A stretch of 64,000 bases of DNA from Escherichia phage naswa, in sequence record MN850595.1. One strand, written 5' to 3'. The notes under the pieces are model-generated. The model made no database searches. It saw only the letters and a list, made by a program, of their open reading frames with translations, and was not told where the DNA came from. Below, one piece after another: positions 14,327 to 47,448 of the stretch (the first letter of the stretch is position 1; every line of letters begins with the position of its first letter). The translations under genes and the position numbers were made by a program.

Positions 14327-14550
14327 CGACTTTGGTTAAAGCTACCTTTGTAGAAGAAAAGATGACAGACCTGTCATTCTTTAAAGAAGGAAAGACCTAC
14401 GAGGTTTATTACGATAAAGCTCGTGCAAATAAAATGATTAAAGACGAGGAAGGGGTTGCCTGGTTTATCTCCCATCTGGCAAACGGTGAGTATCATATCT
14501 ACGGAACCACCCTGCTTGCCAAGTTTGTAGCTGTTGAAGAGGACCTATGA
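14323..14550 (+). CDS. Hypothetical protein
   Basis: 75 aa ORF, ATGA overlap with upstream gene. Confidence 0.5.
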   Translation: MTTLVKATFVEEKMTDLSFFKEGKTYEVYYDKARANKMIKDEEGVAWFISHLANGEYHIYGTTLLAKFVAVEEDL

Positions 14551-14741
14551 AAGTAAAGTATCTGGCTGAGGGTATGAGTAGGTATTTCACCCTTGGTGAA
14601 GAATATTGGCCATTTACAAGCAACGGCGATGTCTACGTGAAAGATAATTTCGGCACGCCATGGTTTTTGCACCCTAACGGGTTAGGGTATTCTATTTATC
14701 GCAGTGCAATGAGCGACACAACCCTTGCAGAGTTTGTATAG
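14547..14741 (+). CDS. Hypothetical protein
   Basis: 64 aa ORF, ATGA overlap. Confidence 0.5.
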   Translation: MKVKYLAEGMSRYFTLGEEYWPFTSNGDVYVKDNFGTPWFLHPNGLGYSIYRSAMSDTTLAEFV

Positions 14742-15199: not shown

Positions 15200-15454
15200 A
15201 TGAAAATTACTCTGAAGCCAGAATGCGTTGAAAATGACCGAGCTTTTAAAGATTGCACAATCGGTGCAATTTATGAAGCAGAGTTTTGTGAGAACCCTTT
15301 GGTAAAAGCCCTTCTGGAAGAAGGAGCTCCTCTATCACAGGAAGAGCTTGATGAGTTGGAAAACTCAGCACAGTGCCTTACCTTTAAAGATGATGAAGGA
15401 GACTCTGTCTGGTGCACTGTTAATGAAGTAGTTTTTGTAAAACCTGAACATTAA
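15200..15454 (+). CDS. Hypothetical protein (paralog of 15518-15790)
   Basis: AAGGAGA RBS; shares KPxxxExDxAFxDCT and KDDxGD motifs with next gene. Confidence 0.55.
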   Translation: MKITLKPECVENDRAFKDCTIGAIYEAEFCENPLVKALLEEGAPLSQEELDELENSAQCLTFKDDEGDSVWCTVNEVVFVKPEH

Positions 15455-33810: not shown

Positions 33811-34429
33811 TCTGCTCTTCCCCCCCTACCATAAACGGCCCTACCTGGCAAGTGGAATAATTGACGAGCCATCAATCCCACACACTGTACAAATATACAT
33901 GGAAAATAACTATTGCATAATTTTTCATTGTGTGGTAGCAAGGCCATTTTTACCCGTTTTACCTTCCAAAATTGCACGTAATGCCGCTATTGCACAAATT
34001 TTAACCTGATGCACATCTCCAATATCTTGTCAACAACTAAAAATCTTTATAAGTCATGCACTTACATAACCACAAAAGCGTGTTCTACGTGAAAAATCGA
34101 GTATAACTATAGCCGCCAGATCTCAGAATTTACGTACGCTCACCAGTCTATAGCCTGCTAAGTATTTATTCCAACCATAGAATAACGGAATAGTCAATAC
34201 CTGCATAAAATAATTATTCGTGTAAACTGCATAACATAAATCGGCTAGGATGTCAACATTTTTCGTAAACAGCTCGAAATTATAACGGTGAGTTATAATA
34301 AACAGAGAAATCTTTAGTCGTCTAATGTTTACTGTACATTACTATACTGACTGGAATCATTAGATGACTAAGAGAAAGATAAGAAATCATTAACAATGCA
34401 ATTGTTTTATTCGTAACAATAAGGCAACT

Positions 34430-34680
34430 ATGCAAACGAATGGCATGGCGCGACGGAGTCGCGACATAATATAAAAGCAGTAACCATCACCCCCGTGATA
34501 GTTTGTCTGCAAACTATTAATCAGATCATAGTTGCCTTGTATTTAGTTAATCATGACATAACAAGCAGGGCAACTATAGATCTGCTAATAGTTGCCCTGC
34601 TTTTATATTATGTCATGCTAATTATAATCAGTGCGATTATTGTCATGTATAATTATTGTCATGCAAACGAATGGCATGGC
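34430..34680. repeat. 20-bp direct repeat ATGCAAACGAATGGCATGGC (34430-34449 and 34661-34680) flanking a nested ~64-bp palindrome (34553-34616)
   Basis: Exact 20-bp repeat 231 bp apart; ATGACATAA...GCAGGGCAACTAT-10 nt-ATAGTTGCCCTGC...TTATGTCAT; ATTATTGTCATG also repeated. Confidence 0.6.
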
Positions 34681-34692
34681 TGATTATCGGTG

Positions 34693-34788
34693 TGTAAACA
34701 GTCAATCATGTAAATGGTTAGCATGTGAACAATCAGGAATGTAAACAATCCAGTGTGTAAACTAATAGGTGTGTAAAAGTGTCATGTT
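34693..34788. repeat. Six tandem iterons with 16-bp periodicity (core TGTAAAC)
   Basis: TGTAAAC/TGTAAAT/TGTGAAC units starting at 34693, 34709, 34724, 34740, 34756, 34772. Confidence 0.65.
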
Positions 34789-36265
34789 GTGTCAGTTAGG
34801 TCACATTATGTCAGACAAGTTTTTCTCCTCTTTGTCAAGTGCTGCATGAAAAATTTACAAGCTTGTATGGTAGCATTTTTGCGGCCCTGTTTACATTCAG
34901 GAGTGTATGTATAATCCTTGGTGTGTGGGCGTTTAGACGTCTAGACGGTTGGAAGTATGCAGGTCAATATCTAATCTATTGGCTGCTAACTATATCCCAC
35001 ACAAATGATAAGAAATATAATTGTTATATGCGTAAACTGTAACTCATGTTATCAATCCCTGTATGTATCGCCAGTGGTGCGCATAATGGGTATTATGTTA
35101 AATTGCCCGTAATGATAACTATTCTCACAATGATAGGTATTCTCATTCACCCCCACAAGATAGGTTGCAAATGTTGTGCCACTGTGTGAACGGCCTAGCC
35201 TATTAATTTGCCTCACTGCCTTGATATTTGAGAATTGTTATAAGAATGAGAAGTATTCCCATTTCGTCCGCCTGGCAGCACTCCAGTCGCTACCGGCTCC
35301 TGACAGGGCAGCTCTCCTGTAGGTCAGGTCAAAATCGTGGTAGAATTGGGCCTATTCAGATATTTCTGGCTGACTCTTCAGGTCTGTGTGAGAAAAGCCA
35401 ACCTTTCCGGCGGCGGGGAGGGGTCAATTAAAAAATTTACGTGGTGTATGAAGCGCTCTTCAGGTAAGGCAGGTATTATGTGATGAAACCCTCTTCAGGC
35501 AATGATATTTGTGGGTGTGATATTTGCTGGAAAGCCAGATATGACGGGACTCCCGGCGGGGCAGGGGTAGTACAGACAGGGAAAATATGGGGGATGTAGT
35601 TGGGGAAATTGATCAGGCAGGTAGAGTATGGAATATGTTACAAGTATGTTAAATATGGAGGTTGAATATCTGCAGGATTTGTGTGTAAAATCAAAGACTT
35701 AAGTGGTGTTGTGGTATTTTCTATAAATAATTCAAGTTTAATAGGTAATATTTGTCTCTATCCACTTTGTGTGGTAAACAGATTCAGATGAAATTGGTTT
35801 ACAAGTGTATACATAATATACAAATTAAAGATACAAGAAACCCCCCTCCCCCTTCGGCTACCATTCACCTTTTCCTCTGACTGGTACTTAAACACTTATT
35901 CAGACTCTTCAGGTTATCACCCATATATCATATGGCAGTGACTGGTGTCCTCCGGCCCCTCTTTCGTCACCCGTCCGCTTCGCCATGCTAATGCCATAGC
36001 CAATGGTTCGGTTGTTCACCCTGTTCACTCAGGTGTATCTCCATACCCCTTCAAACCGAAGAGAACAGAAAACCCGAATTACTCGGTAAAAGAAAAGAGA
36101 AGAACTTAATTTTATCAGGATAGGCAAGAATGTCAAGGCATGACTGCTCACTAAACAAGCAAACAGTCATGTGTGGTAGGTAAGTGATTGTGGTGGTAGG
36201 AAATTTAGTTGAAAGATGTGTTATAGGTGCGCTTCCAGCACTTTAGCCGGGCAGCTAATTGTGTG

Positions 36266-36481
36266 TCAGTCTAGCGGTTCATCCTCTACTTCACTGAAAT
36301 CAATGTTCATGGTCTCTTCCCAACCATCGATCTCAGCACAAGAGTGGAGTTCTTTAGGGTTTACTCCCAAAGCCTCAGCAACAGAGTCTATATTTAACAC
36401 CTCTGGCAGGTATGATTCATCGAATTCAAGGTAAATCAGGCCACGAGTGTTGTCAGCTCCACCAAATATCTCTATCTTCAT
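36266..36481 (-). CDS. Small acidic protein
   Basis: 71 aa Asp/Glu-rich ORF; last gene of minus-strand block. Confidence 0.45.
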   Translation of the reverse strand: MKIEIFGGADNTRGLIYLEFDESYLPEVLNIDSVAEALGVNPKELHSCAEIDGWEETMNIDFSEVEDEPLD

Positions 36482-37175: not shown

Positions 37176-37487
37176 CTATACCCATGAGGGCTTATCAAGG
37201 TTGGAGTAGCTGAAAGGTGTCAAAAGGTGACTGTCAAAATCCCTCAAACTATCCAAATCTTTTTCCTCGTCCTGACACCATCTGTGCCTACATTTATTGT
37301 TGTAGTGCATAGAATGCATAGCGTTCTGCAACTTAACAGGTACAAGTGATTCAGGAGTAGATAGTATTGTTGGGTATGCCAGAACCACCTCAAACAGTGG
37401 AAACACATCGAAACTAAAGTCTACCTCTGCAGAGGTTGATGGCATGTAGGAGTATTTAGCCGCCTTTGTAGACATAATCCACCTCAC
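37176..37487 (-). CDS. Hypothetical protein
   Basis: 103 aa ORF. Confidence 0.5.
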   Translation of the reverse strand: MRWIMSTKAAKYSYMPSTSAEVDFSFDVFPLFEVVLAYPTILSTPESLVPVKLQNAMHSMHYNNKCRHRWCQDEEKDLDSLRDFDSHLLTPFSYSNLDKPSWV

Positions 37488-38959: not shown

Positions 38960-39247
38960 TCATAGTGCCTCTAAGATTTCATATCCTTCAGGTCGAAATA
39001 CAAGCCACTCCGTGGCTCCGTTTGGTCGATACGCTTTATACAGAACAACCTGATCTCGGCACATGCACATGGCTACATAGTTTTCATCCACACCTGCAGC
39101 CTGCATTGCAGCTTCTTCTCCGGCAACTGCTTTGCTTACAACCTCCTTAGTAGGCAGGTGTGCGATCAGCTCGTCACCATCATTAATTCCAAAATGGCTG
39201 AGTTCTCCATTGGTATCTTTAATCTTAATCTTAACCAGATCTTTCAT
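38960..39247 (-). CDS. Hypothetical protein (possible divergent member of paralog family A)
   Basis: 95 aa; C-terminal EGYEILEAL resembles family A C-termini. Confidence 0.5.
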   Translation of the reverse strand: MKDLVKIKIKDTNGELSHFGINDGDELIAHLPTKEVVSKAVAGEEAAMQAAGVDENYVAMCMCRDQVVLYKAYRPNGATEWLVFRPEGYEILEAL

Positions 39248-39576
39248 TAGTCTTCCTCCAGGTTCAAAGGCCCTAAGATTTCATATGCCAGATTAGAAGT
39301 TACCAGAGGGTCTTCTGCATCTTTAGTATTATACCACCCGTGAATAACCAGAGTCCCACTCTGTTTCATATCTAACTGGAACTGTTCTGCAGTTTCCTCA
39401 TCCATCTCTAAGATCTCCATAAGGTACTTGATGTTAGGAAGGTATGCAGCTGTTACAGTTCCCTCCACCAAACCTTCGGGCCAACCTACATCCGGATGAC
39501 AAGTAGGAACCAGATTAGTCAGCTTAATAGTGTACGCTTTTTCTGCACGAGCCTTCAGTAACGGGTCAATCTTCAT
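39247..39576 (-). CDS. Hypothetical protein (possible family A member)
   Basis: 109 aa; MKI N-terminus, VIHG core, AYEILG C-terminal motif. Confidence 0.5.
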   Translation of the reverse strand: MKIDPLLKARAEKAYTIKLTNLVPTCHPDVGWPEGLVEGTVTAAYLPNIKYLMEILEMDEETAEQFQLDMKQSGTLVIHGWYNTKDAEDPLVTSNLAYEILGPLNLEED

Positions 39577-39926
39577 TATTCGTCCTCCTCTTCGGTGCCT
39601 GCTTCCAGTAATAAGTTAAGAATATCTTCTGCACAAGGTTCATAGAACTCTTGGCCTTCATTATCGATGATTTTGTAGTCATCTCCACGAATAATCAGGG
39701 GATCACTCTCAAAATTATCGAGACCTTTAACAACGACAACACGATCGATTGCCATCATTGTAAGAACTTTATCGACATCTTCCTCTGCTACACCATACTG
39801 CAGCAGAATGTCTTTGGTAGGAGGAACAGCATCCACCACAACGCCGTTACCAAAACCTTCTGGAAGTTTAGCTAAAATATCTTCCGGAACCACATTCACA
39901 TCAAAACCGGTAATTTCTACTTTCAT
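39576..39926 (-). CDS. Paralog family A small protein
   Basis: MKVEITG N-terminus, VVVVKGLD core, acidic C-terminus. Confidence 0.5.
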   Translation of the reverse strand: MKVEITGFDVNVVPEDILAKLPEGFGNGVVVDAVPPTKDILLQYGVAEEDVDKVLTMMAIDRVVVVKGLDNFESDPLIIRGDDYKIIDNEGQEFYEPCAEDILNLLLEAGTEEEDE

Positions 39927-40187
39927 TTACAGCACCTCTTCGTCAACTACTTCATAAAAATGGCCTGGGATTGCAATAGCGTTCTCACCTTCACCTACAA
40001 ACACAGTTCCGTCAAGAATCAACATCATAAGAATTTCTGTAATATCCTCTTCCGGAACGTTGCCAAAACCTTTAATCAGCTCGTAGGTTGGAATATTTAC
40101 CTCTAAGATGTCACCATCTTTAGAACGGAAATCAACACCGTCCTGAATCTCTGCCGTTTCAAGGTTTTTCAACTTAATCTTCATCAA
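39927..40187 (-). CDS. Paralog family A small protein
   Basis: MMKIKL N-terminus; C-terminal FYEVVDEEV. Confidence 0.5.
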   Translation of the reverse strand: MMKIKLKNLETAEIQDGVDFRSKDGDILEVNIPTYELIKGFGNVPEEDITEILMMLILDGTVFVGEGENAIAIPGHFYEVVDEEVL

Positions 40188-40263
40188 TCGGTCTCCTGTC
40201 TTGTTAAGATGAAGGTATTATTTCACACAGGGTTGGCGTTGTCAACACCTGTGTGCAAGAAAA

Positions 40264-40659
40264 TTACTGAAACAGTGCGGATAAATTACCTTCTGGTGGG
40301 AACTTATCTGCCAAAAACGGTGTTAGCACAGTAGCCTTCTGAAGATCTGGGGTCCACTCGTTGTTCAGAACATCCCAGTAGTACGCAATGTTGCTGTGTG
40401 GGTGCCGCATTACGAACTTTTTCCCTTCGTAGTCATCTGAAACCTCTACAGAAGAAATAACAACAGAATCTTCAAGGGTTTCTTCATAGAAAGATCCGCC
40501 TTCAAATTTCCAACGAGATGCAAGAGCCCCTGCCTTGAACGCTGCAGATAACGGACTGTCGGCAAGAACATACATTTCTTGCACTCTGTCGCTGCGATCT
40601 TTGCTTCTTACGTTGTATACAGTATCTGAGCTATACTCAACACGGTATAGGCTTACCAT
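40264..40659 (-). CDS. Paralog family B protein
   Basis: Shares FVMRHPHSNIAYYWDVLNNEWTP with 42471-42869 (FVIVHPDSRVKHYWNARTKTWTP). Confidence 0.55.
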   Translation of the reverse strand: MVSLYRVEYSSDTVYNVRSKDRSDRVQEMYVLADSPLSAAFKAGALASRWKFEGGSFYEETLEDSVVISSVEVSDDYEGKKFVMRHPHSNIAYYWDVLNNEWTPDLQKATVLTPFLADKFPPEGNLSALFQ

Positions 40660-40991
40660 TACCGCACCTCCTCAATAACTTCCACATCTGAACCCACCAC
40701 AAATGCAAAAGGACAGGTTTCATGAAAGACATCCGGATCTCCGCCAAGCTTGCTAACAATTTCTCCACCACTAATAAACACAAGCTCACCGATATTCATC
40801 AGATTGCTGAAATAGTACCCATAATGATTAAAGAATGCAGCAGGGTCAGGTAGACTAGTAGCCTCAAGCACTACATCGGTTGAGGTTACTTTCTTATCAT
40901 AACCTCTCGCCTTTTGAGATGCAAGATCTGCAGAATCCTCAGGAGACCGGAGATGCACAGGAATTGTTTCACCAATAAAGCGTACTTTCAT
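40659..40991 (-). CDS. Paralog family A small protein
   Basis: Start taken at MKVRFIGE; core LVFISGGE; C-terminal DVEVIEEVR. Confidence 0.5.
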   Translation of the reverse strand: MKVRFIGETIPVHLRSPEDSADLASQKARGYDKKVTSTDVVLEATSLPDPAAFFNHYGYYFSNLMNIGELVFISGGEIVSKLGGDPDVFHETCPFAFVVGSDVEVIEEVR

Positions 40992-40995
40992 ATTA

Positions 40996-41259
40996 TCACC
41001 CAACAACCATAGCTTCAAAAGGAGTCATGAACGAATAAACGGCATCATCATCTGCTTCAGGGAATGCTCCCAAAGACTTCATGTCTGAGCCCTTGACAAA
41101 TACAAGGTTTTGATCAAAAGCTTCTTGGGGGTCAATCCGATACATATTTCGTAGAATATTACTTACCTCCTCATCAAGAGGTGAGTATGCTGTGCACGTT
41201 TTTCCGATCAAGCTTTGAGAATCAGGGTATCCACCTGAAGTTTTAAAATAAACAATCAT
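40996..41259 (-). CDS. Paralog family A small protein
   Basis: Core LVFVKGSDMKSLGA matches family motif. Confidence 0.5.
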   Translation of the reverse strand: MIVYFKTSGGYPDSQSLIGKTCTAYSPLDEEVSNILRNMYRIDPQEAFDQNLVFVKGSDMKSLGAFPEADDDAVYSFMTPFEAMVVG

Positions 41260-41350
41260 ATAATATCACCTCTGGTAAGAGATTGGGATTCCTTTCCCAC
41301 AAATAATTACAAATCTTACTTAGCGAGGAAGTATGCTAATCCAAGCAGGA

Positions 41351-41620
41351 TTATTCCTCTACAATCTCATACACATCAGGAGTTACAATCAACTCTTCTC
41401 CATTACCAGGTGCAACAAACACCACCAAACCCTCAGGTGTGTGCTTTTTAGCCATCTCGATAACATCTTCTCGCAGAGCTGGCTCCATCAGATCAAAACC
41501 TTCACCCAGGGCATCACGAACCACCTTCATATAGTCCACTGGTTGTGCTTCAACAATCATGCCTTCAACCAGACCACAATTTTTGTCTGCCAGCTCAGTT
41601 TTGAATAATTTAATTTTCAT
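41351..41620 (-). CDS. Paralog family A small protein
   Basis: MKIKLF N-terminus; C-terminal DVYEIVEE. Confidence 0.5.
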   Translation of the reverse strand: MKIKLFKTELADKNCGLVEGMIVEAQPVDYMKVVRDALGEGFDLMEPALREDVIEMAKKHTPEGLVVFVAPGNGEELIVTPDVYEIVEE

Positions 41621-41646
41621 TTAGAGGTCTCCTCAATTATTTGATA

Positions 41647-41748
41647 TTAATAGCCGTAACCTAACACATTAACTACAACTGCGATTGCAAACATAATTTC
41701 AAAGCATGCAATCTCTACATTTGGGACTAATTTCTTAATCACACCCAT
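41647..41748 (-). CDS. Small membrane peptide (33 aa), not in ORF track
   Basis: ATG after GAGGTG RBS just downstream of hpf; hydrophobic FEIMFAIAVVVNVLGYGY. Confidence 0.35.
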   Translation of the reverse strand: MGVIKKLVPNVEIACFEIMFAIAVVVNVLGYGY

Positions 41749-41757
41749 TGTAGCACC

Positions 41758-42078
41758 TCATTCTCCAAAGTCAATCTTTACTTTGCCTTTCCCCTTACCT
41801 TTCTTTCCACCGCATTTAGCCAGCTGACGTGCTGCAACATCTACCATACGGTCAGTTGCCTCGTAAGCATCACTGCCTTTAGCCTTGGCAATAACTTCTT
41901 TTCCAGAATTGTCAAAAATGAACGCCATAACTTCCTGGTGATCATTTTCAACTTTTACACTCACACGTGCATAGTTAACAGAGGGATGTAAACGCTCCAG
42001 CTTGGACATTTTGCGGGAAATAAAAGATACCATACCTTCTGTGATTTCTACATTGTTGCCAGTGATTTCAATTTGCAT
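41758..42078 (-). CDS. hpf: Ribosome hibernation-promoting factor homolog (HPF/RaiA family)
   Basis: MQIEITGNNVEITEGM...LERLHPSVNYARVSVKVE parallels bacterial HPF N-terminus MQLNITGHNVEIT; AAGGA RBS. Confidence 0.8.
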   Translation of the reverse strand: MQIEITGNNVEITEGMVSFISRKMSKLERLHPSVNYARVSVKVENDHQEVMAFIFDNSGKEVIAKAKGSDAYEATDRMVDVAARQLAKCGGKKGKGKGKVKIDFGE

Positions 42079-42162
42079 AACGTGTTCCTTTTAAGGAAGA
42101 GGGAATAACTATCTCTCTTTGAAAACAATGATACTAAATCTGAAGCGTTGTGTCAACAGTTT

Positions 42163-42453
42163 TTACAGCTTGTTGTCGATAGTTTTTAAAATATCCACAG
42201 CAAGATCTGCCATTTTTCGAACATACTCTGCAAACTCAACAGGATCCTTGATCAAAGAATTCACAGGGTCGTACCCTAGAGCGTTTAAAATGGCTGCAGC
42301 ATCTACAACCTTCTCATCATTTGCGAAGATCTCTCCGTCAAACTTGTAGGTCCATTTTGAGTCAACCTTAGCAGAGCAGGGTTTGTCCATGCTTGTTACA
42401 CCATCGTCTTTAAACTCTCCTGCGTTATCAATATTTAGAATTAAATCCATCAT
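42163..42453 (-). CDS. Hypothetical protein
   Basis: 96 aa ORF. Confidence 0.5.
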   Translation of the reverse strand: MMDLILNIDNAGEFKDDGVTSMDKPCSAKVDSKWTYKFDGEIFANDEKVVDAAAILNALGYDPVNSLIKDPVEFAEYVRKMADLAVDILKTIDNKL

Positions 42454-42470
42454 GGTGACACCTCACTGTT

Positions 42471-42869
42471 TCAGTTTAGCTTTTCTTCAACAACCCCATA
42501 ACTTGGGGCAGAGTCAAGAGCTTTCTGGTTTAAAAGTGGCGTAGCAGAATCTGCAAACGGTGTCCAAGTTTTTGTTCTGGCATTCCAGTAATGCTTCACT
42601 CTGGAATCTGGATGCACTATAACAAAAACTTTTTCACTTGTCAACACATTAATTTCTTCTACACCCTTGCTGATAATTTCTCCGTCATAGCCCCCAGTCT
42701 GGTATCCTTCGTACCAGGTTCTTGCATAGGCATAGCCAGCCTGCCAGCATGCAGCCTCCTCCGAGGTGGAGACTACGTAGAAGTCTTTCTCAAATTCCGG
42801 AATACGCCCTTGCTTTACGCTCCAAGCTCCGCGAATTTTCATTGTTACTTTGAAAAGCTTGTTCTTCAT
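42471..42869 (-). CDS. Paralog family B protein
   Basis: Shares conserved C-terminal block with 40264-40659. Confidence 0.55.
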   Translation of the reverse strand: MKNKLFKVTMKIRGAWSVKQGRIPEFEKDFYVVSTSEEAACWQAGYAYARTWYEGYQTGGYDGEIISKGVEEINVLTSEKVFVIVHPDSRVKHYWNARTKTWTPFADSATPLLNQKALDSAPSYGVVEEKLN

Positions 42870-42870
42870 A

Positions 42871-43125
42871 CTACCGCTCTACAATCTCTACATCTGTTCC
42901 TACACCGAAGGCATAGTAATGTTCTTCCCCAAAGTAATACTTGGGGACACCCGCTTTGATCAGATCTAACCCGCGAATAAATACCACACCGTGTGATACA
43001 GTGGAATGCTTCTGACGCACAGGATCGTTGTCAGGCAACCATTCAAAGTACACCGCAGGTACAACCTTTCCCTTCAGGAAGGATTGTCCCAAGTAGACGT
43101 TAGAATCAAGAATTTTAACCTTCAT
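42871..43125 (-). CDS. Paralog family A small protein
   Basis: MKVKIL N-terminus, VVFIRGLDLIKAG core, DVEIVER C-terminus. Confidence 0.55.
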   Translation of the reverse strand: MKVKILDSNVYLGQSFLKGKVVPAVYFEWLPDNDPVRQKHSTVSHGVVFIRGLDLIKAGVPKYYFGEEHYYAFGVGTDVEIVER

Positions 43126-43342
43126 TCTCGTCCTCCACTATCTCTACATCCTCACCAAGGGCAAAGTTGTAGGTCCACTGGCTGTCAAAGCAGTCCTGAG
43201 ATGCACCAGCGGCAATAAGATCTGCACCTTTTATTTTTAAAAGGTCAGGATAATCTTCGTTAGGGATAGCGGTAAACACTTTCCCCACTAAGGGCTCCTG
43301 ACCAATATAGAAGCTTGAATCTAAAACTTTAACTTTCATCAA
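43115..43342 (-). CDS. Paralog family A small protein
   Basis: MKVKVL N-terminus, LLKIKGADLIAAG core, DVEIVED C-terminus. Confidence 0.55.
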   Translation of the reverse strand: MMKVKVLDSSFYIGQEPLVGKVFTAIPNEDYPDLLKIKGADLIAAGASQDCFDSQWTYNFALGEDVEIVEDENEG

Positions 43343-43626
43343 CGGTCTCCCTCAGGCGGTTGTGGGACGTAAACACTGTTACGAATATCGTCAGCAGTGT
43401 AGTAATAAGTGGTTCCAACCCTATCTCGGGCTGCAATGTACTCTGCTATACCAGCAAGTGCCATTGATTTGGTGGCGTATCTTCCCCACTCGTTAGCTCC
43501 CCAGTAGAATTTAGACCAGTAGGGAATAAGACCGAACAAATATACCTTTTGACGAACTTCCCAGTAAGTGCCTTTTCCGACAAGTTTAAACTCTACTTCA
43601 CTACTGTTAATCTTTTTCATTATCAA
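43339..43626 (-). CDS. Hypothetical protein
   Basis: 95 aa ORF, ATGA overlap. Confidence 0.5.
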   Translation of the reverse strand: MIMKKINSSEVEFKLVGKGTYWEVRQKVYLFGLIPYWSKFYWGANEWGRYATKSMALAGIAEYIAARDRVGTTYYYTADDIRNSVYVPQPPEGDR

Positions 43627-43919
43627 TCTCCCTCTACCGTGGTCGGATTGTCAGTAAGAAATTGAGCATTGGCTGGAGGCACGCCTGACATTTTCCACAC
43701 AACCATAAGTTTATAACCAGGCACTCTATTAAGTGCAGATCGAGTAGAGTTTGTGCACGTATACTTTCGCTTTCCAAACCCGTTCTCCATCATAATCCAG
43801 TACCCAGTATCTTTGTCACCAGGTATCGGTAGACCACCTTCATCAACCCACTGAATTGACCACGGCACGATGGCTACAGCTTTATATTTAAACTTTTTAA
43901 ACCACTCAAAAAGTTTCAT
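43623..43919 (-). CDS. Hypothetical protein
   Basis: 98 aa ORF. Confidence 0.5.
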   Translation of the reverse strand: MKLFEWFKKFKYKAVAIVPWSIQWVDEGGLPIPGDKDTGYWIMMENGFGKRKYTCTNSTRSALNRVPGYKLMVVWKMSGVPPANAQFLTDNPTTVEGD

Positions 43920-44014
43920 AATTCAGCCCCGCATAGACATAATCACTATAAACAGGCAAACAATGAATCCGAATGCCACGCCACCCATAAACGTTAATAT
44001 TGATGCAATCATAG

Positions 44015-44200
44015 TCAATCAGCCTCGCCTGGCAACTCTTCTACCTTAACATGCCGAAAAGTGTTACCGTAATGGTTGATCCATGACATCAGCTCACTTT
44101 CTTGCTCTTCCTCTGGGATGAACTCTCGAATACTGACAAGTTTTAAGAAAACCCAATCACAATCTGCACCCATTCTACCAGACAGACAATAGTGCTTCAT
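44015..44200 (-). CDS. Hypothetical protein
   Basis: Start set to ATG after GGGAGGG RBS. Confidence 0.4.
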   Translation of the reverse strand: MKHYCLSGRMGADCDWVFLKLVSIREFIPEEEQESELMSWINHYGNTFRHVKVEELPGEAD

Positions 44201-44219
44201 AAAAACCCTCCCGCCCGGT

Positions 44220-44414
44220 TTAGAATATTGCTTCTTCCATTGCGCCTGAGAGCAACAAAGAGGTGATCTGGCTAACATTCATCTCAGACTCTACTTCCTC
44301 CCCTTTGAAAGGTTCGCGGCAGAATAGGACTGTTTCAGGACTTTTACTTCGAACAATATAATACAAATCATTCAATGTGTTGTAGTAATAAGTGTTAAAA
44401 CGTAAGTTTTTCAT
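44220..44414 (-). CDS. Hypothetical protein
   Basis: 64 aa ORF. Confidence 0.4.
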   Translation of the reverse strand: MKNLRFNTYYYNTLNDLYYIVRSKSPETVLFCREPFKGEEVESEMNVSQITSLLLSGAMEEAIF

Positions 44415-44698
44415 TTTCTAGTCCTCTTCTTAGATTTTTGGGGAGAAACGCTTTCTGCAATACGAGACAGACGTTCTTCTGAAGCCTTACCTACTCCAGG
44501 TTTTTTGAGTGGATTATCTTTATGACCACAATCCAACTGGATATTGGATACCTCTCCAACTTTGTAAGTCAATTCTAGCAAAAGGTTGTCGTCCTTGTCA
44601 AATGTTTTTACGATAAATTTTTTATCGTTCTCCTGAACTTCATATCTGGTACCTGCAGTATACAGCATGGTGCCATCAGCATAGGATATCCAAATCAT
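44411..44698 (-). CDS. Hypothetical protein
   Basis: 95 aa ORF, ATGA overlap. Confidence 0.5.
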   Translation of the reverse strand: MIWISYADGTMLYTAGTRYEVQENDKKFIVKTFDKDDNLLLELTYKVGEVSNIQLDCGHKDNPLKKPGVGKASEERLSRIAESVSPQKSKKRTRK

Positions 44699-45042
44699 TG
44701 AGCCTCCTTTTGCTGCAACAGCATTAACTCTTTGTTAGAAATCTTTACTGCTGTTTTTATTGTTCCATCTTCACGAAACCACGACCAGAACTCTACAGTG
44801 TCACCACTATCAAGTAAAGCATGCCCATGGTAAAAATCTTTGTCCTTAGACAGTTTCTCATCTATATCTGCATCAACACATTCGTGATCCATAGCATTTT
44901 GCCTGAACGCATCGGTTATGCCAATGCACGCCTTGCTCTCAAGACTGGTATATCCGATATCTTTTAATTCAGTTTCCCAAGTCCAGTACCCTATAAAAGC
45001 TAAAACAGCTACCCACAGTAATAACGTTTTAATCTTTGGCAT
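44695..45042 (-). CDS. Hypothetical exported or membrane-anchored protein
   Basis: N-terminal hydrophobic signal-anchor LLLWVAVLAFIGYW. Confidence 0.5.
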   Translation of the reverse strand: MPKIKTLLLWVAVLAFIGYWTWETELKDIGYTSLESKACIGITDAFRQNAMDHECVDADIDEKLSKDKDFYHGHALLDSGDTVEFWSWFREDGTIKTAVKISNKELMLLQQKEAQ

Positions 45043-45104
45043 TCTCTCTACCTCTTTCTTAGTTTATTTCACTATGGCACATCCTTTGTGCCATATCTCA
45101 ACTA

Positions 45105-45575
45105 CTACTTAAATAGTAGTTCAAAATAGTGCAAAATTAACAGAAGTTGAACTACACCTAGTGCAACGGCGAGTATGTTAATCTTAGAATCGAAAAACTT
45201 CTTAACTTTTACTCTAAAAGGTTCCTTAATGTCCTTTACGATCCTATCTATAGATGACCTCATATCTCTGATTACCATCCTGAACATTAAAGACGGATGC
45301 TCCCCCATCTCTGTAACGGAATCGAAAACATACTCTCTTCGGTCATAAGGGCCGCCAGCTCTGCGTATTAACCTCTCCACAGAGACCTCGAACGTCACAC
45401 CTGTAACGTAATCATCTATAACAAGTCGTGACGGGTCTTTACCTTTACTATCAAGAGGTATCAAAGTTATCTTTCCAGATTTTGTTAAAATTTCCCCTTT
45501 TTCAAGCAAGGTGTACCAATGCTCTCTGCCAAGACTGTTGAGGCACGTTTTTACATATTTAACAAACATCGTCAC
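45105..45575 (-). CDS. Hypothetical protein with C-terminal TM helix
   Basis: 156 aa; hydrophobic C-terminus ILAVALGVVQLLLIL. Confidence 0.5.
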   Translation of the reverse strand: MTMFVKYVKTCLNSLGREHWYTLLEKGEILTKSGKITLIPLDSKGKDPSRLVIDDYVTGVTFEVSVERLIRRAGGPYDRREYVFDSVTEMGEHPSLMFRMVIRDMRSSIDRIVKDIKEPFRVKVKKFFDSKINILAVALGVVQLLLILHYFELLFK

Positions 45576-45757
45576 CCCTCATCGCACGTCTGATATAACC
45601 ACTCTATAAAATCTTGATACCATTCGCCCTCTGAGCGCTCCGTAGGCCAATAATCTTCACCCTCTCGTGCATTAAAATCTGAGTATTCAACTTTCCACTC
45701 CTTTACCAGCTCGTGGAGAAGGTTTTCAGCCTGCTCTAAAGATTTATTTTTTACCAT
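45572..45757 (-). CDS. Hypothetical protein
   Basis: Start set to ATG after AAGGAGA RBS. Confidence 0.45.
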   Translation of the reverse strand: MVKNKSLEQAENLLHELVKEWKVEYSDFNAREGEDYWPTERSEGEWYQDFIEWLYQTCDEG

Positions 45758-45976
45758 TGCTGTCTCCTTTTTCAAGATAGTTATACATCAGAACTGCACC
45801 ACCTAAGATGGCTACCAGTAACAATACCCCAGATAGCATCTCAATAAACATGGCTTGAAACACTGGAAGGCCTCCCTAAATTAACGCACCATTTTAAATA
45901 CATGCTCTTTTCCCATAAAGGTGCCTGGCTAAGATCTGCGTAGAACGCAATCTCTTTAAGAACAGTATAAACAGTT

Positions 45977-46213
45977 TTAGGTGCGGTCTCCATCCCTACC
46001 CTCCTTTTTCTCCTTACGGATATTCTTGTAGTAATCAACCAGGCACATTATCACGATGAAGATAACAACAGGCCAAAAAGGTGCAGCAGTGATGATGGTG
46101 ATAAAATCATCAAACTTCACCCTTCGTCTGGACACGATGCATACACCTGTCAAGAATACCGCTGTTATAACGGACATTACCAGGTAACCTATTAGCACAA
46201 CATTTATACTCAT
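45977..46213 (-). CDS. Hypothetical membrane protein
   Basis: Two TM-like segments; AAGGGAGGA RBS. Confidence 0.5.
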   Translation of the reverse strand: MSINVVLIGYLVMSVITAVFLTGVCIVSRRRVKFDDFITIITAAPFWPVVIFIVIMCLVDYYKNIRKEKKEGRDGDRT

Positions 46214-46243
46214 TGGTCCTCCCTTTGTAGGTTAAATTGTATA

Positions 46244-46777
46244 CTACAAATGGCAACTGAGGGTGTCAAGAAAATTATCCCGTTCTTTCTCAGAGTTTTC
46301 ATGGGTGTAGCTGAAAAACATATCGAGAATAACCTTATTGATATATTCCAGCTCCTCTGTGTTCAGATGCTTAGCAGGATCTACAATGACATCCCAAATA
46401 TCATACAGACCACACTCATGATACCCATAACGCCACTCAATTGTCAAGCTGAGCGGCAAATCTTTACCGTCACAAACAACCTTCCATCTACATATGTTGG
46501 TATCTGGTCGTATCTGTGCACGGTACACCTGTACAAAATCCAATTTGAATTTGAGGTACTCGTCATACAATTTAAGCACAAAGCTCTCGATTTGTGGAGA
46601 CACTTTTGCAGCAAACTGTGCGTATTTGTACTTGCACTGGATGATCTTTCTGCGTTTTGCAGTTAAATTTTTTGCCGCCAGTTGTTCTTCAGTGTATCTC
46701 CACCTACGATCAACAAACGCAACAGGGTCTTTGTCCCCATAGAGGTCTTCCCAGTTAATCAGAAGCATACCTGTCAC
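46244..46777 (-). CDS. Hypothetical protein
   Basis: 177 aa ORF. Confidence 0.55.
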   Translation of the reverse strand: MTGMLLINWEDLYGDKDPVAFVDRRWRYTEEQLAAKNLTAKRRKIIQCKYKYAQFAAKVSPQIESFVLKLYDEYLKFKLDFVQVYRAQIRPDTNICRWKVVCDGKDLPLSLTIEWRYGYHECGLYDIWDVIVDPAKHLNTEELEYINKVILDMFFSYTHENSEKERDNFLDTLSCHL

Positions 46778-47007
46778 TCCTCCACAACTTCAAGGCCTTT
46801 ACCGCCTCGCTCTGGCAGATTACTTAAAGATAGGTAATACATATAATCAGGAGAGATCCTGCCAGACTCTGCACCTGCAGCTAGTAAATCCTTCCCTTTA
46901 ACCAGGACAACATTCTCGTTTGCAGATAGCCGTTTTGCTTCCACAATTTTACCAACACAGTCAACCAAGGAAGGGTACCCTAAATCTGTAAGAAATTTAA
47001 CTTTCAT
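46774..47007 (-). CDS. Paralog family A small protein
   Basis: MKVKFL N-terminus, VVLVKGKDLLAAG core, GLEVVEE C-terminus. Confidence 0.55.
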   Translation of the reverse strand: MKVKFLTDLGYPSLVDCVGKIVEAKRLSANENVVLVKGKDLLAAGAESGRISPDYMYYLSLSNLPERGGKGLEVVEE

Positions 47008-47046
47008 GCTACCTCCTGCTTCTACCGTCCCTGGTAAGATAAATTA

Positions 47047-47448
47047 TTACTGAACAGAGCGCGGGGCTAGGAAGGATAACTCTTCTAAAGAGAAGATTTC
47101 ATTTCCTACCACCCAAGTTGCTGGATCATCTGGGTCAACAGGCTGGATAATCATTACCTCATCCGCCTCGCACACACGTTTCCCACCTATAGTAGCGGAG
47201 TCAGCCACTAGCATACGAGGCTCTTCAGAAATGCACAGGTAACCTCCTCGGCCCACTGTTCCTTCCACAGGATCCTGCCCTTTGACCACAATGAATACCT
47301 TCTCTCCTGTGGCGATATTACTTTGCACACTAACAGTTTGACCAACTTTAGATGTACCGATCTTGGTGGCTTCAAACATTAAATCCCGAATTACTGTTGC
47401 ATAGTTGCCGGACACTTTCTTACCTTCTTTAGTAATCTCAATCTTCAT
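47047..47448 (-). CDS. Hypothetical protein (possible extended family A member)
   Basis: MKIEIT N-terminus and KVFIVVKGQD core. Confidence 0.5.
   Translation of the reverse strand: MKIEITKEGKKVSGNYATVIRDLMFEATKIGTSKVGQTVSVQSNIATGEKVFIVVKGQDPVEGTVGRGGYLCISEEPRMLVADSATIGGKRVCEADEVMIIQPVDPDDPATWVVGNEIFSLEELSFLAPRSVQ

Follow-up and report, generated by a model that had tools for sequence, protein, structure and literature searches.

Three uncharacterised families of small accessory proteins in an rV5-like Vequintavirus, two with a predicted SH3-like fold, and their possible part in growth on a clinical Escherichia coli strain

Introduction

A stretch of 64,000 nucleotides from Escherichia phage naswa (sequence record MN850595.1; hereafter the window) carries, between positions 38960 and 47448 (8.5 kb), twelve accessory genes that form three uncharacterised families of small proteins, here termed family A (five members), family B (five members) and family 2 (two members); single genes are named by their first coordinate. 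We propose, with a probability of about one half, that these proteins are diversified, host-specific binding proteins acting in counter-defence or host takeover. The reading is built on the paralogy of the genes, on the small barrel fold predicted for families A and B, and on transposon data published by others for a close relative of the phage, which show that the block of genes 40996, 40659 and 40264 is needed on a clinical isolate of Escherichia coli (CFE311) and dispensable on strain K-12, with 42471, the paralogue of 40264, partly needed.

Phages of the rV5 type have a broad host range and are candidates for use in therapy and biocontrol, yet for many of their genes no function has been assigned. 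Here, a 6-kb stretch annotated as 'hypothetical protein' is resolved into three defined families, two of them with a predicted fold, and a published phenotype is tied to named genes. New here are the families, the fold assignment, a repeated gene cassette and the tie to a host-specific requirement; no description of the families is given in the rV5 genome paper or in the BASEL paper. The expansion of small accessory phage proteins on a common fold is, in itself, a familiar theme.

Results and Discussion

Twelve Genes in Three Families

The interval comes from an rV5-like Vequintavirus: it shows 99.4% identity to Escherichia phage magaca and is more than 90% identical to over 110 other rV5-like Vequintavirus genomes, in which its open reading frames (ORFs) are annotated coding sequences, nearly all of them as 'hypothetical protein'. 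The ORFs were confirmed at the coordinates given below, and every gene of the interval lies on the minus strand, which is consistent with a switch in GC skew near 35 kb.

The genes had initially been described as one family of nine to eleven members. The paralogous expansion is real, and leave-one-out profile hidden Markov models (HMMs) divide it into two families of five; a further proposed member, 47047, falls outside both. The central (K/R)G-x-D-L-x-x-AG motif, which had been taken as common to the whole group, is confined to family A and has no counterpart in family B. The members of family A are the following.

46774-47007, minus strand, 77 aa: rV5 gp122, bas54_0166; phrog_5009 E = 8e-36; leave-one-out HMM E = 9e-7
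43115-43339, minus strand, 74 aa: rV5 gp135, bas54_0159; phrog_5009 E = 4e-37; modelled member
42871-43125, minus strand, 84 aa: rV5 gp136, bas54_0158; phrog_5009 E = 4e-27
40996-41259, minus strand, 87 aa: rV5 gp142, bas54_0152; leave-one-out HMM E = 5e-4; phrog_5009 E = 1e-4 (partial)
40659-40991, minus strand, 110 aa: rV5 gp143, bas54_0151; leave-one-out HMM E = 2e-5

Family B comprises five genes, four of them consecutive.

41351-41620, minus strand, 89 aa: rV5 gp141, bas54_0153; modelled member
39927-40184, minus strand, 85 aa: rV5 gp145, bas54_0149; leave-one-out HMM E = 7.5e-5; isoelectric point (pI) 4.1, charge -13
39576-39926, minus strand, 116 aa: rV5 gp146, bas54_0148; leave-one-out HMM E = 4e-5; pI 4.1, charge -21
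39247-39576, minus strand, 109 aa: rV5 gp147, bas54_0147; the weakest member, leave-one-out HMM E = 0.014, still the top non-training match
38960-39247, minus strand, 95 aa: rV5 gp148/149, bas54_0146; leave-one-out HMM E = 7.5e-5

Family 2 had been recognised from the start as a second, two-member family, and this grouping holds: the two proteins match each other by BLASTP at E = 2e-9 and have phrog_7379 in common.

42471-42869, minus strand, 132 aa: rV5 gp137, bas54_0157; phrog_7379
40264-40659, minus strand, 131 aa: rV5 gp144, bas54_0150; phrog_7379

The search space for the leave-one-out HMMs was the full set of 468 ORFs (six frames, at least 40 aa) of the window. In family A each omitted member was the top non-training match (E from 1e-15 to 5e-4, with the best decoys at E >= 0.28), and every omitted member of family B likewise topped the non-training matches (E from 4e-5 to 1.4e-2, best decoys at E 0.5-2). 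In an all-against-all BLASTP of 32 locally encoded proteins, the closest pair of family A was 43115-42871 (E = 2e-15, 42% identity), followed by 43115-46774 (2e-6), 40659-43115 (3e-4), 40659-42871 (4e-4) and 40996-46774 (5e-3); in family B, 39576-39927 matched at 1e-3, and 39247-39576 and 38960-39927 at about 0.06. A census of families A, B and 2, covering positions 30-103 kb of magaca and the whole window, revealed no further copy in the phage genome.

These proteins are remote from described families. Sequence and profile searches of Pfam, NCBIfam and the PDB gave no useful match for family A, B or 2; none of the ten A and B proteins matched a Pfam family at E <= 0.1, and thirty diverse members of family A gave no Pfam match at E <= 1. 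Word-indexed homologue searches returned almost exclusively rV5-type orthologues. In PHROGs the twelve genes are spread over ten families, none with an assigned function. The nearest of these, phrog_5009 (with its satellites phrog_13920, 13661, 11868, 12359, 12155, 12457 and 12794), is matched end to end by 46774, 43115 and 42871 and weakly by 40996, and at E <= 0.01 by neither 40659 nor any member of family B; the wider family A, family B and the possible link between the two are not captured by PHROGs. The proteins are markedly acidic, with pI values of 4.1-4.8 in eight of the ten A and B proteins and net charges of -6 to -21 in family B.

A Host-Specific Requirement in Published Transposon Data

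The phage Bas54 (MaxBurger) has been subjected to saturating transposon mutagenesis in the HIDEN-SEQ preprint (10.1101/2025.11.20.689424). Its orthologues of the twelve genes are 98-100% identical in ten cases, the other two being those of 43115 (92%) and 42871 (80%). On K-12 all twelve family genes tolerate insertions: nine of them (bas54_0146-0150, 0157-0159 and 0166), together with bas54_0155, which encodes a homologue of the ribosome hibernation factor HPF, are classed as 'Non-essential', and bas54_0151-0153 as 'Intermediate', with 69-73% of their TA sites hit (10.1101/2025.11.20.689424).

The picture is different on CFE311, a uropathogenic E. coli isolate that was compared with K-12 in the same work. 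Insertions fell to a mean count of 0.0 in bas54_0150 (the orthologue of 40264; log2 fold change (log2FC) -6.77), bas54_0151 (40659; -6.17) and bas54_0152 (40996; -7.16), each with an adjusted p of 0, and were depleted to a lesser degree in bas54_0157 (42471; -2.14, adjusted p 0); the value for bas54_0153 (41351), -2.78, was not significant (10.1101/2025.11.20.689424). The genes bas54_0146-0149, 0154-0156, 0158, 0159 and 0166 were unchanged, so that the HPF gene (bas54_0155, log2FC -0.53) is among those not depleted (10.1101/2025.11.20.689424). Insertions in bas54_0158, which lies just upstream of bas54_0157, were tolerated on CFE311, and this argues against strong polarity; the authors of the preprint, too, argue against widespread polarity (10.1101/2025.11.20.689424).

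Two genes from this screen were validated by the same authors against DS-28, a predicted defence system of CFE311, and they are the only ones: bas54_0063, a MoxR ATPase, and bas54_0140 (10.1101/2025.11.20.689424). The latter is the orthologue (99% identical) of 37176-37487 (minus strand), a gene on the strand of the cassette and 2.8 kb downstream of it. Both validated genes resemble bas54_0150-0152 in that they come from the same genus and screen, are non-essential on K-12 and are strongly depleted on CFE311; bas54_0140 differs in having no sequence relationship to the family genes, and when considered as a possible member of family B it mapped to 37176-37487, outside the families.

As a side observation, the comparison titled 'resampling_K-12_vs_CFE303' repeats the command line (B54_2_311) and the values of CFE311 (Extended Data Table 8, sheets Data S6 and S7), so that the supplement of the preprint seems to lack the CFE303 comparison.

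Predicted Fold of Families A and B

The initial annotation could not place the proteins in a known fold and had suggested structure prediction. AlphaFold2 models, calculated from alignments of paralogues and orthologues, were confident for one member of each family (predicted local distance difference test score 89.8 for 43115 of family A and 91.0 for 41351 of family B), and both are predicted barrels of the SH3/KOW/PsaE type. The model of the A protein has strands at residues 2-5, 21-26, 33-37, 56-61 and 65-69; a short helix after strand 3 (residues 38-43) corresponds to the conserved G-x-(D/E)-L-I-x-x-G-(A/G) element and is followed by a long loop. The B model has strands at 2-5 and 22-27, three helices within 30-60, and strands at 66-69, 76-79 and 84-88. 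The differences in length within family A (42871, 40996 and 40659) fall between strands 2 and 3, the same place as the three-helix insertion of family B.

The small barrels closest to these models include eukaryotic SH3 domains (for example that of Sho1, 2vkn_A), Spt5/NusG KOW domains (4zn3_A), PsaE (8z11_e) and the C-terminal domain of retroviral integrase (6tju), so that, at the level of fold, both families are predicted to be SH3-like small beta-barrels. In sequence, however, the A and B proteins match neither the KOW (PF00467) nor the canonical SH3 (SH3_1) family, and a search of the PDB found no significant sequence match for them. Among the proteins of BFVD, the best Foldseek match of the 41351 model is an orthologue of 38960, another member of family B (probability 1.00), and the other matches are weak SH3-like phage proteins.

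Are Families A and B Related?

The tests give a mixed picture. A common ancestry of the two families is probable (about two in three), given that profile and rank tests, the predicted fold in common and the co-location of the genes point in this direction. Profile-profile alignment of A against B with hhalign gave P values of 4e-4 to 1.5e-3 and probabilities of 17-35% over an alignment of only about 29 N-terminal columns; the score of 22.5 compares with 9.0 +/- 2.0 for column shuffles, and none of 150 shuffles reached it. When the 123 putative genes of the window, 118 after leaving out family A, were ranked against the A profile, the five B members took ranks 1, 3, 11, 14 and 37 (Mann-Whitney P = 3e-4); the reverse test, with the A members against the B profile, gave P = 0.035. 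HMMER found no significant match between A and B, and the Foldseek search of BFVD with the B model retrieved no A protein and thus no link between the families.

Distribution and Evolution

Family A extends beyond the rV5-type phages. Among 1.84 billion representative proteins its profile retrieved no more than 39 clusters (E <= 1e-3), for the most part stand-alone proteins of 63-86 aa; a few contain two or three tandem domains or one domain with an unrelated C-terminal extension. In the lambdoid coliphages mEp554 and mEp013 the relatives belong to a group of small genes flanked by recombination/Holliday-resolvase genes on one side and lysis genes on the other, and 20 of the 5,426 complete E. 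coli genomes carry lambdoid relatives; for one lambdoid prophage protein (P0032) the closest rV5-type counterpart is 46774, with about 41% identity. Prophage-like contigs of IMG/VR also carry family A genes, between recombination genes and an integrase, one of them with three consecutive copies. Families B and 2 were found in rV5-type phages only. A candidate relative (P0087, DUF7399) turned out to be a chimera of an unrelated N-terminus and the C-terminus of 39247, and is uninformative on the family.

A distant relative recovered as a Logan contig (L003) keeps the gene order of the window and has one-to-one orthologues, with 29-74% identity, of all five members of family B, four of family A and one of family 2; the paralogues must therefore be old, and each has been maintained on its own. 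The orthologue of 42871 is truncated in this contig, and an additional gene of PF27050 (Phage_P22_Y8K6) separates the family 2 gene from the B run. Pairwise ratios of nonsynonymous to synonymous substitutions (dN/dS) against Bas57, Bas54 and this contig, that is, among four genomes in all, range from 0.0 to 0.4. The family genes are under purifying selection, and the diversifying selection that had been suggested for examination was seen nowhere in these comparisons.

Gene loss is evident in the region, and exchange is probable. Bas54 is devoid of 43623-45105. In Bas59 a deletion joins the 46244 gene to what is left of 42471, its last 33 codons, so that two A genes (42871 among them) and one family 2 gene are gone; 42471 is lost from the Logan contig as well. 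The 42871 gene is only 80-82% identical to its orthologues in Bas54 and Bas57 (dS 0.8-1.0, dN/dS 0.15-0.20), and its flanking genes are 98-100% identical to theirs (dS about 0.1), so that 42871 looks like an old alternative allele brought in by recombination.

Gene Organisation and Promoters

Many genes of the interval abut or overlap, and the locus had been described as one tightly packed operon. The tight packing is confirmed; the single operon is not, as at least three strong sigma-70-type promoters are found inside the region.

42128-42156, minus strand: sigma-70-type promoter before the HPF gene, TTGACA-17-TATCAT, 11/12; rV5 P144, with a promoter annotation in the corresponding place of NC_011041
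41747-41774, minus strand: sigma-70-type promoter-like site, TTGACT-16-TACAAT, extended -10, 10/12; a consensus match only
40217-40245, minus strand: sigma-70-type promoter before the four-gene B run, TTGACA-17-AATAAT, extended -10, 11/12; rV5 P150, NC_011041

The site at 41747-41774 lies upstream of a small ORF and of 41351, 40996, 40659 and 40264. According to the rV5 paper, E. coli-type promoters occur throughout that genome, and the locus is probably transcribed by the host RNA polymerase as short operons from several sigma-70 promoters. A search of the literature for a transcriptome of Vequintavirus infection found none. The gene order A, A, family 2 is found twice, as 43115-42871-42471 and as 40996-40659-40264.

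The initial annotation was correct in recognising a genuine HPF homologue in the interval.

41758-42078, minus strand, 106 aa: HPF homologue of the short HPF/RaiA type, PF02482 E = 4e-15; bas54_0155

HPF has an alpha/beta fold. The HPF/RaiA gene is a physical neighbour of the A and B genes, yet no A or B protein matches PF02482, and their predicted beta-barrel is unlike the HPF fold. In magaca and several other GenBank records 41351 is labelled 'sigma 54 modulation factor', which gives those genomes two such genes; since 41351 has no PF02482 match and is predicted to be a beta-barrel with inserted helices, and the true HPF gene scores E = 4e-15, this label looks like a propagated annotation error.

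A Possible Role in Counter-Defence and Its Alternatives

The simplest view of the data is that of accessory proteins on a small, robust SH3-like scaffold that can be spared in the laboratory and count in particular hosts only. According to the reading that we prefer, the family proteins would bind host proteins stoichiometrically and so neutralise or redirect them; the likeliest targets would be components of immunity that vary between strains. Different specificities would come from the loop between strands 2 and 3, which is variable, and from the number of paralogues. Counter-defence is the most likely purpose, since the neighbour bas54_0140 is validated, genes of the region have been lost in nature and the temperate-phage homologues lie among accessory genes. 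A more specific version can be outlined tentatively, and we hold it to be possible and rather doubtful: families A and B would be one superfamily of phage binders, unrecognised so far, with a hypervariable strand 2-3 loop or insertion, multiplied by duplication so as to neutralise different host immunity proteins, and the A-A-family 2 cassette, present twice, would be a new multi-component counter-defence module, of which the copy at 40264-41259 would defeat a barrier of CFE311. The cassette 40996-40659-40264 is a hypothetical host-range or counter-defence determinant on a clinical E. coli strain; if the proteins are indeed binders with a variable loop, the families would add an SH3-like scaffold to the small phage inhibitors and would also point to a barrier in CFE311.

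Several points weigh against this reading. The phenotype data come from a preprint and concern a single clinical strain, CFE311, whose requirement for the block could reflect a difference in host factors or physiology rather than immunity, and seven of the ten A and B genes have no phenotype in the available conditions. Insertions in bas54_0152 and bas54_0151 are possibly polar on bas54_0150, in which case only family 2 would be needed. The genes bas54_0150-0152 were neither followed up nor discussed by the authors of the preprint (10.1101/2025.11.20.689424). Protein binding, a counter-defence purpose and the ancestry of A and B are matters that we infer, as is early expression, which is suggested by promoter consensus. 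Moreover, the Vequintavirinae are, in the BASEL collection, unusually sensitive to restriction-modification, and any counter-defence is therefore not a broad anti-restriction activity.

A serious rival is that the proteins are host-adaptation factors unrelated to immunity, which adjust transcription, proteolysis, metabolism or the envelope in some strains. Conditional essentiality by itself does not identify immunity, tail-fibre, helicase and nucleotide-metabolism genes also differ in how far they are required in the CFE311 screen, genes for ClpP-like and PhoH-like proteins and a methyltransferase lie on the same strand as the family genes, and bas54_0151-0153 are 'Intermediate' already on K-12. 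Conversely, bas54_0140 and the MoxR ATPase, from the very same screen, were shown to act against a defence system that had been cloned; natural isolates have lost the region and are viable, as is typical of accessory genes engaged in an arms race, and the temperate-phage homologues likewise reside among small accessory genes. On balance we regard host adaptation without immunity as unlikely. Another proposal, in which the proteins of family B, and possibly some of family A, would mimic nucleic acids and serve as acidic decoys against DNA-binding host nucleases or restriction enzymes, draws on their low pI, their negative charges and the acidic helical insertions and C-terminal tails, and seems to us quite improbable.

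The neighbourhood of HPF implied a functional tie, in which the barrels would bind ribosomes or ribosomal proteins and modulate translation. RNA-binding KOW and ribosomal proteins are typically basic, and the acidity of the A and B proteins speaks against this role, as does the missing Pfam match to KOW. The HPF gene is under its own promoter, on CFE311 it can be disrupted without effect, unlike the A-A-family 2 block, which is needed there, and family A homologues occur in other phages without HPF. For these reasons a tie to HPF or the ribosome is unlikely, and we consider it a very improbable explanation of the families. Finally, the similarity could be meaningless, with unrelated small ORFs having in common only an MK start and a C-terminus that is hydrophobic and acidic. 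Many pairs of members are indeed insignificant by BLASTP, PHROGs separates most of them, and A and B do not find each other with HMMER; against this, leave-one-out HMMs recover all A and B members first among the 468 ORFs, the confident models of A and B have the same fold, and profile-profile and rank tests place the two families nearer to each other than to other phage genes. Within the families this explanation is largely refuted, and as a whole it is extremely improbable; the preferred reading as host-specific binders retains the probability given above.

A virion role for the family proteins is not supported, and all of them tolerate transposon insertion on K-12. The initial annotation had named assignment to a virion protein family as an outcome that would speak against its interpretation; a search for structural PHROG or Pfam matches to the twelve proteins found none, no family member is among the virion proteins named in the text of the rV5 paper, and the sole gene of the interval labelled 'structural', 45105-45575, belongs to none of the families.

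Neighbouring Genes and Minor Observations

The remaining gene that had been counted with the paralogues is the following.

47047-47448, minus strand, 133 aa: non-member; phrog_5748; retrieved by neither the A nor the B profile

Its hhalign scores against the families are at noise level, and it was rejected as a member. Two other genes lie in the region and outside the families, 43623-43919 (minus strand), the orthologue of rV5 gp133, and 45105-45575 (minus strand; phrog_7821), the orthologue of rV5 gp128. In the rV5 paper gp133 is reported among the predominant proteins found by mass spectrometry of the virion; the rV5 GenBank record lists gp128 as 'virion structural protein'. Both orthologues sit in the middle of the region among accessory genes, and both are missing from Bas54.

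Three further small ORFs of the window start with MK(I/V)x(I/L/Y): 15200-15454 (plus strand), 36266-36481 (minus strand) and 14547-14741 (plus strand). The first two have a B-like layout of strand, strand, acidic helical stretch and strands. Compared with the A and B profiles (HMM and hhalign), all three are at the top of the noise and not significant; they may be further divergent SH3-like proteins. A YxYHECG heptapeptide common to 46244-46777 and a gene of mEp554 (L002 4726-5001), each beside an A homologue, was discarded as too short a match and not significant.

Eighteen MG0656xx records that are named 'Campylobacter phage', with C. jejuni as host, are at least 92% identical to this region, and their host labels look doubtful. 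An Rfam scan from 33 to 48 kb found no RNA family. The intergenic region at the strand switch (about 34200-36000) contains clusters of direct and inverted repeats built on ATAGTTGCC, for example at 34414-34432, 34527-34545, 34563-34577 and 34588-34605. This repeat region may be an origin or a regulatory hub; in HIDEN-SEQ the corresponding 2-kb intergenic region of Bas54 tolerated zero transposon insertions (10.1101/2025.11.20.689424).

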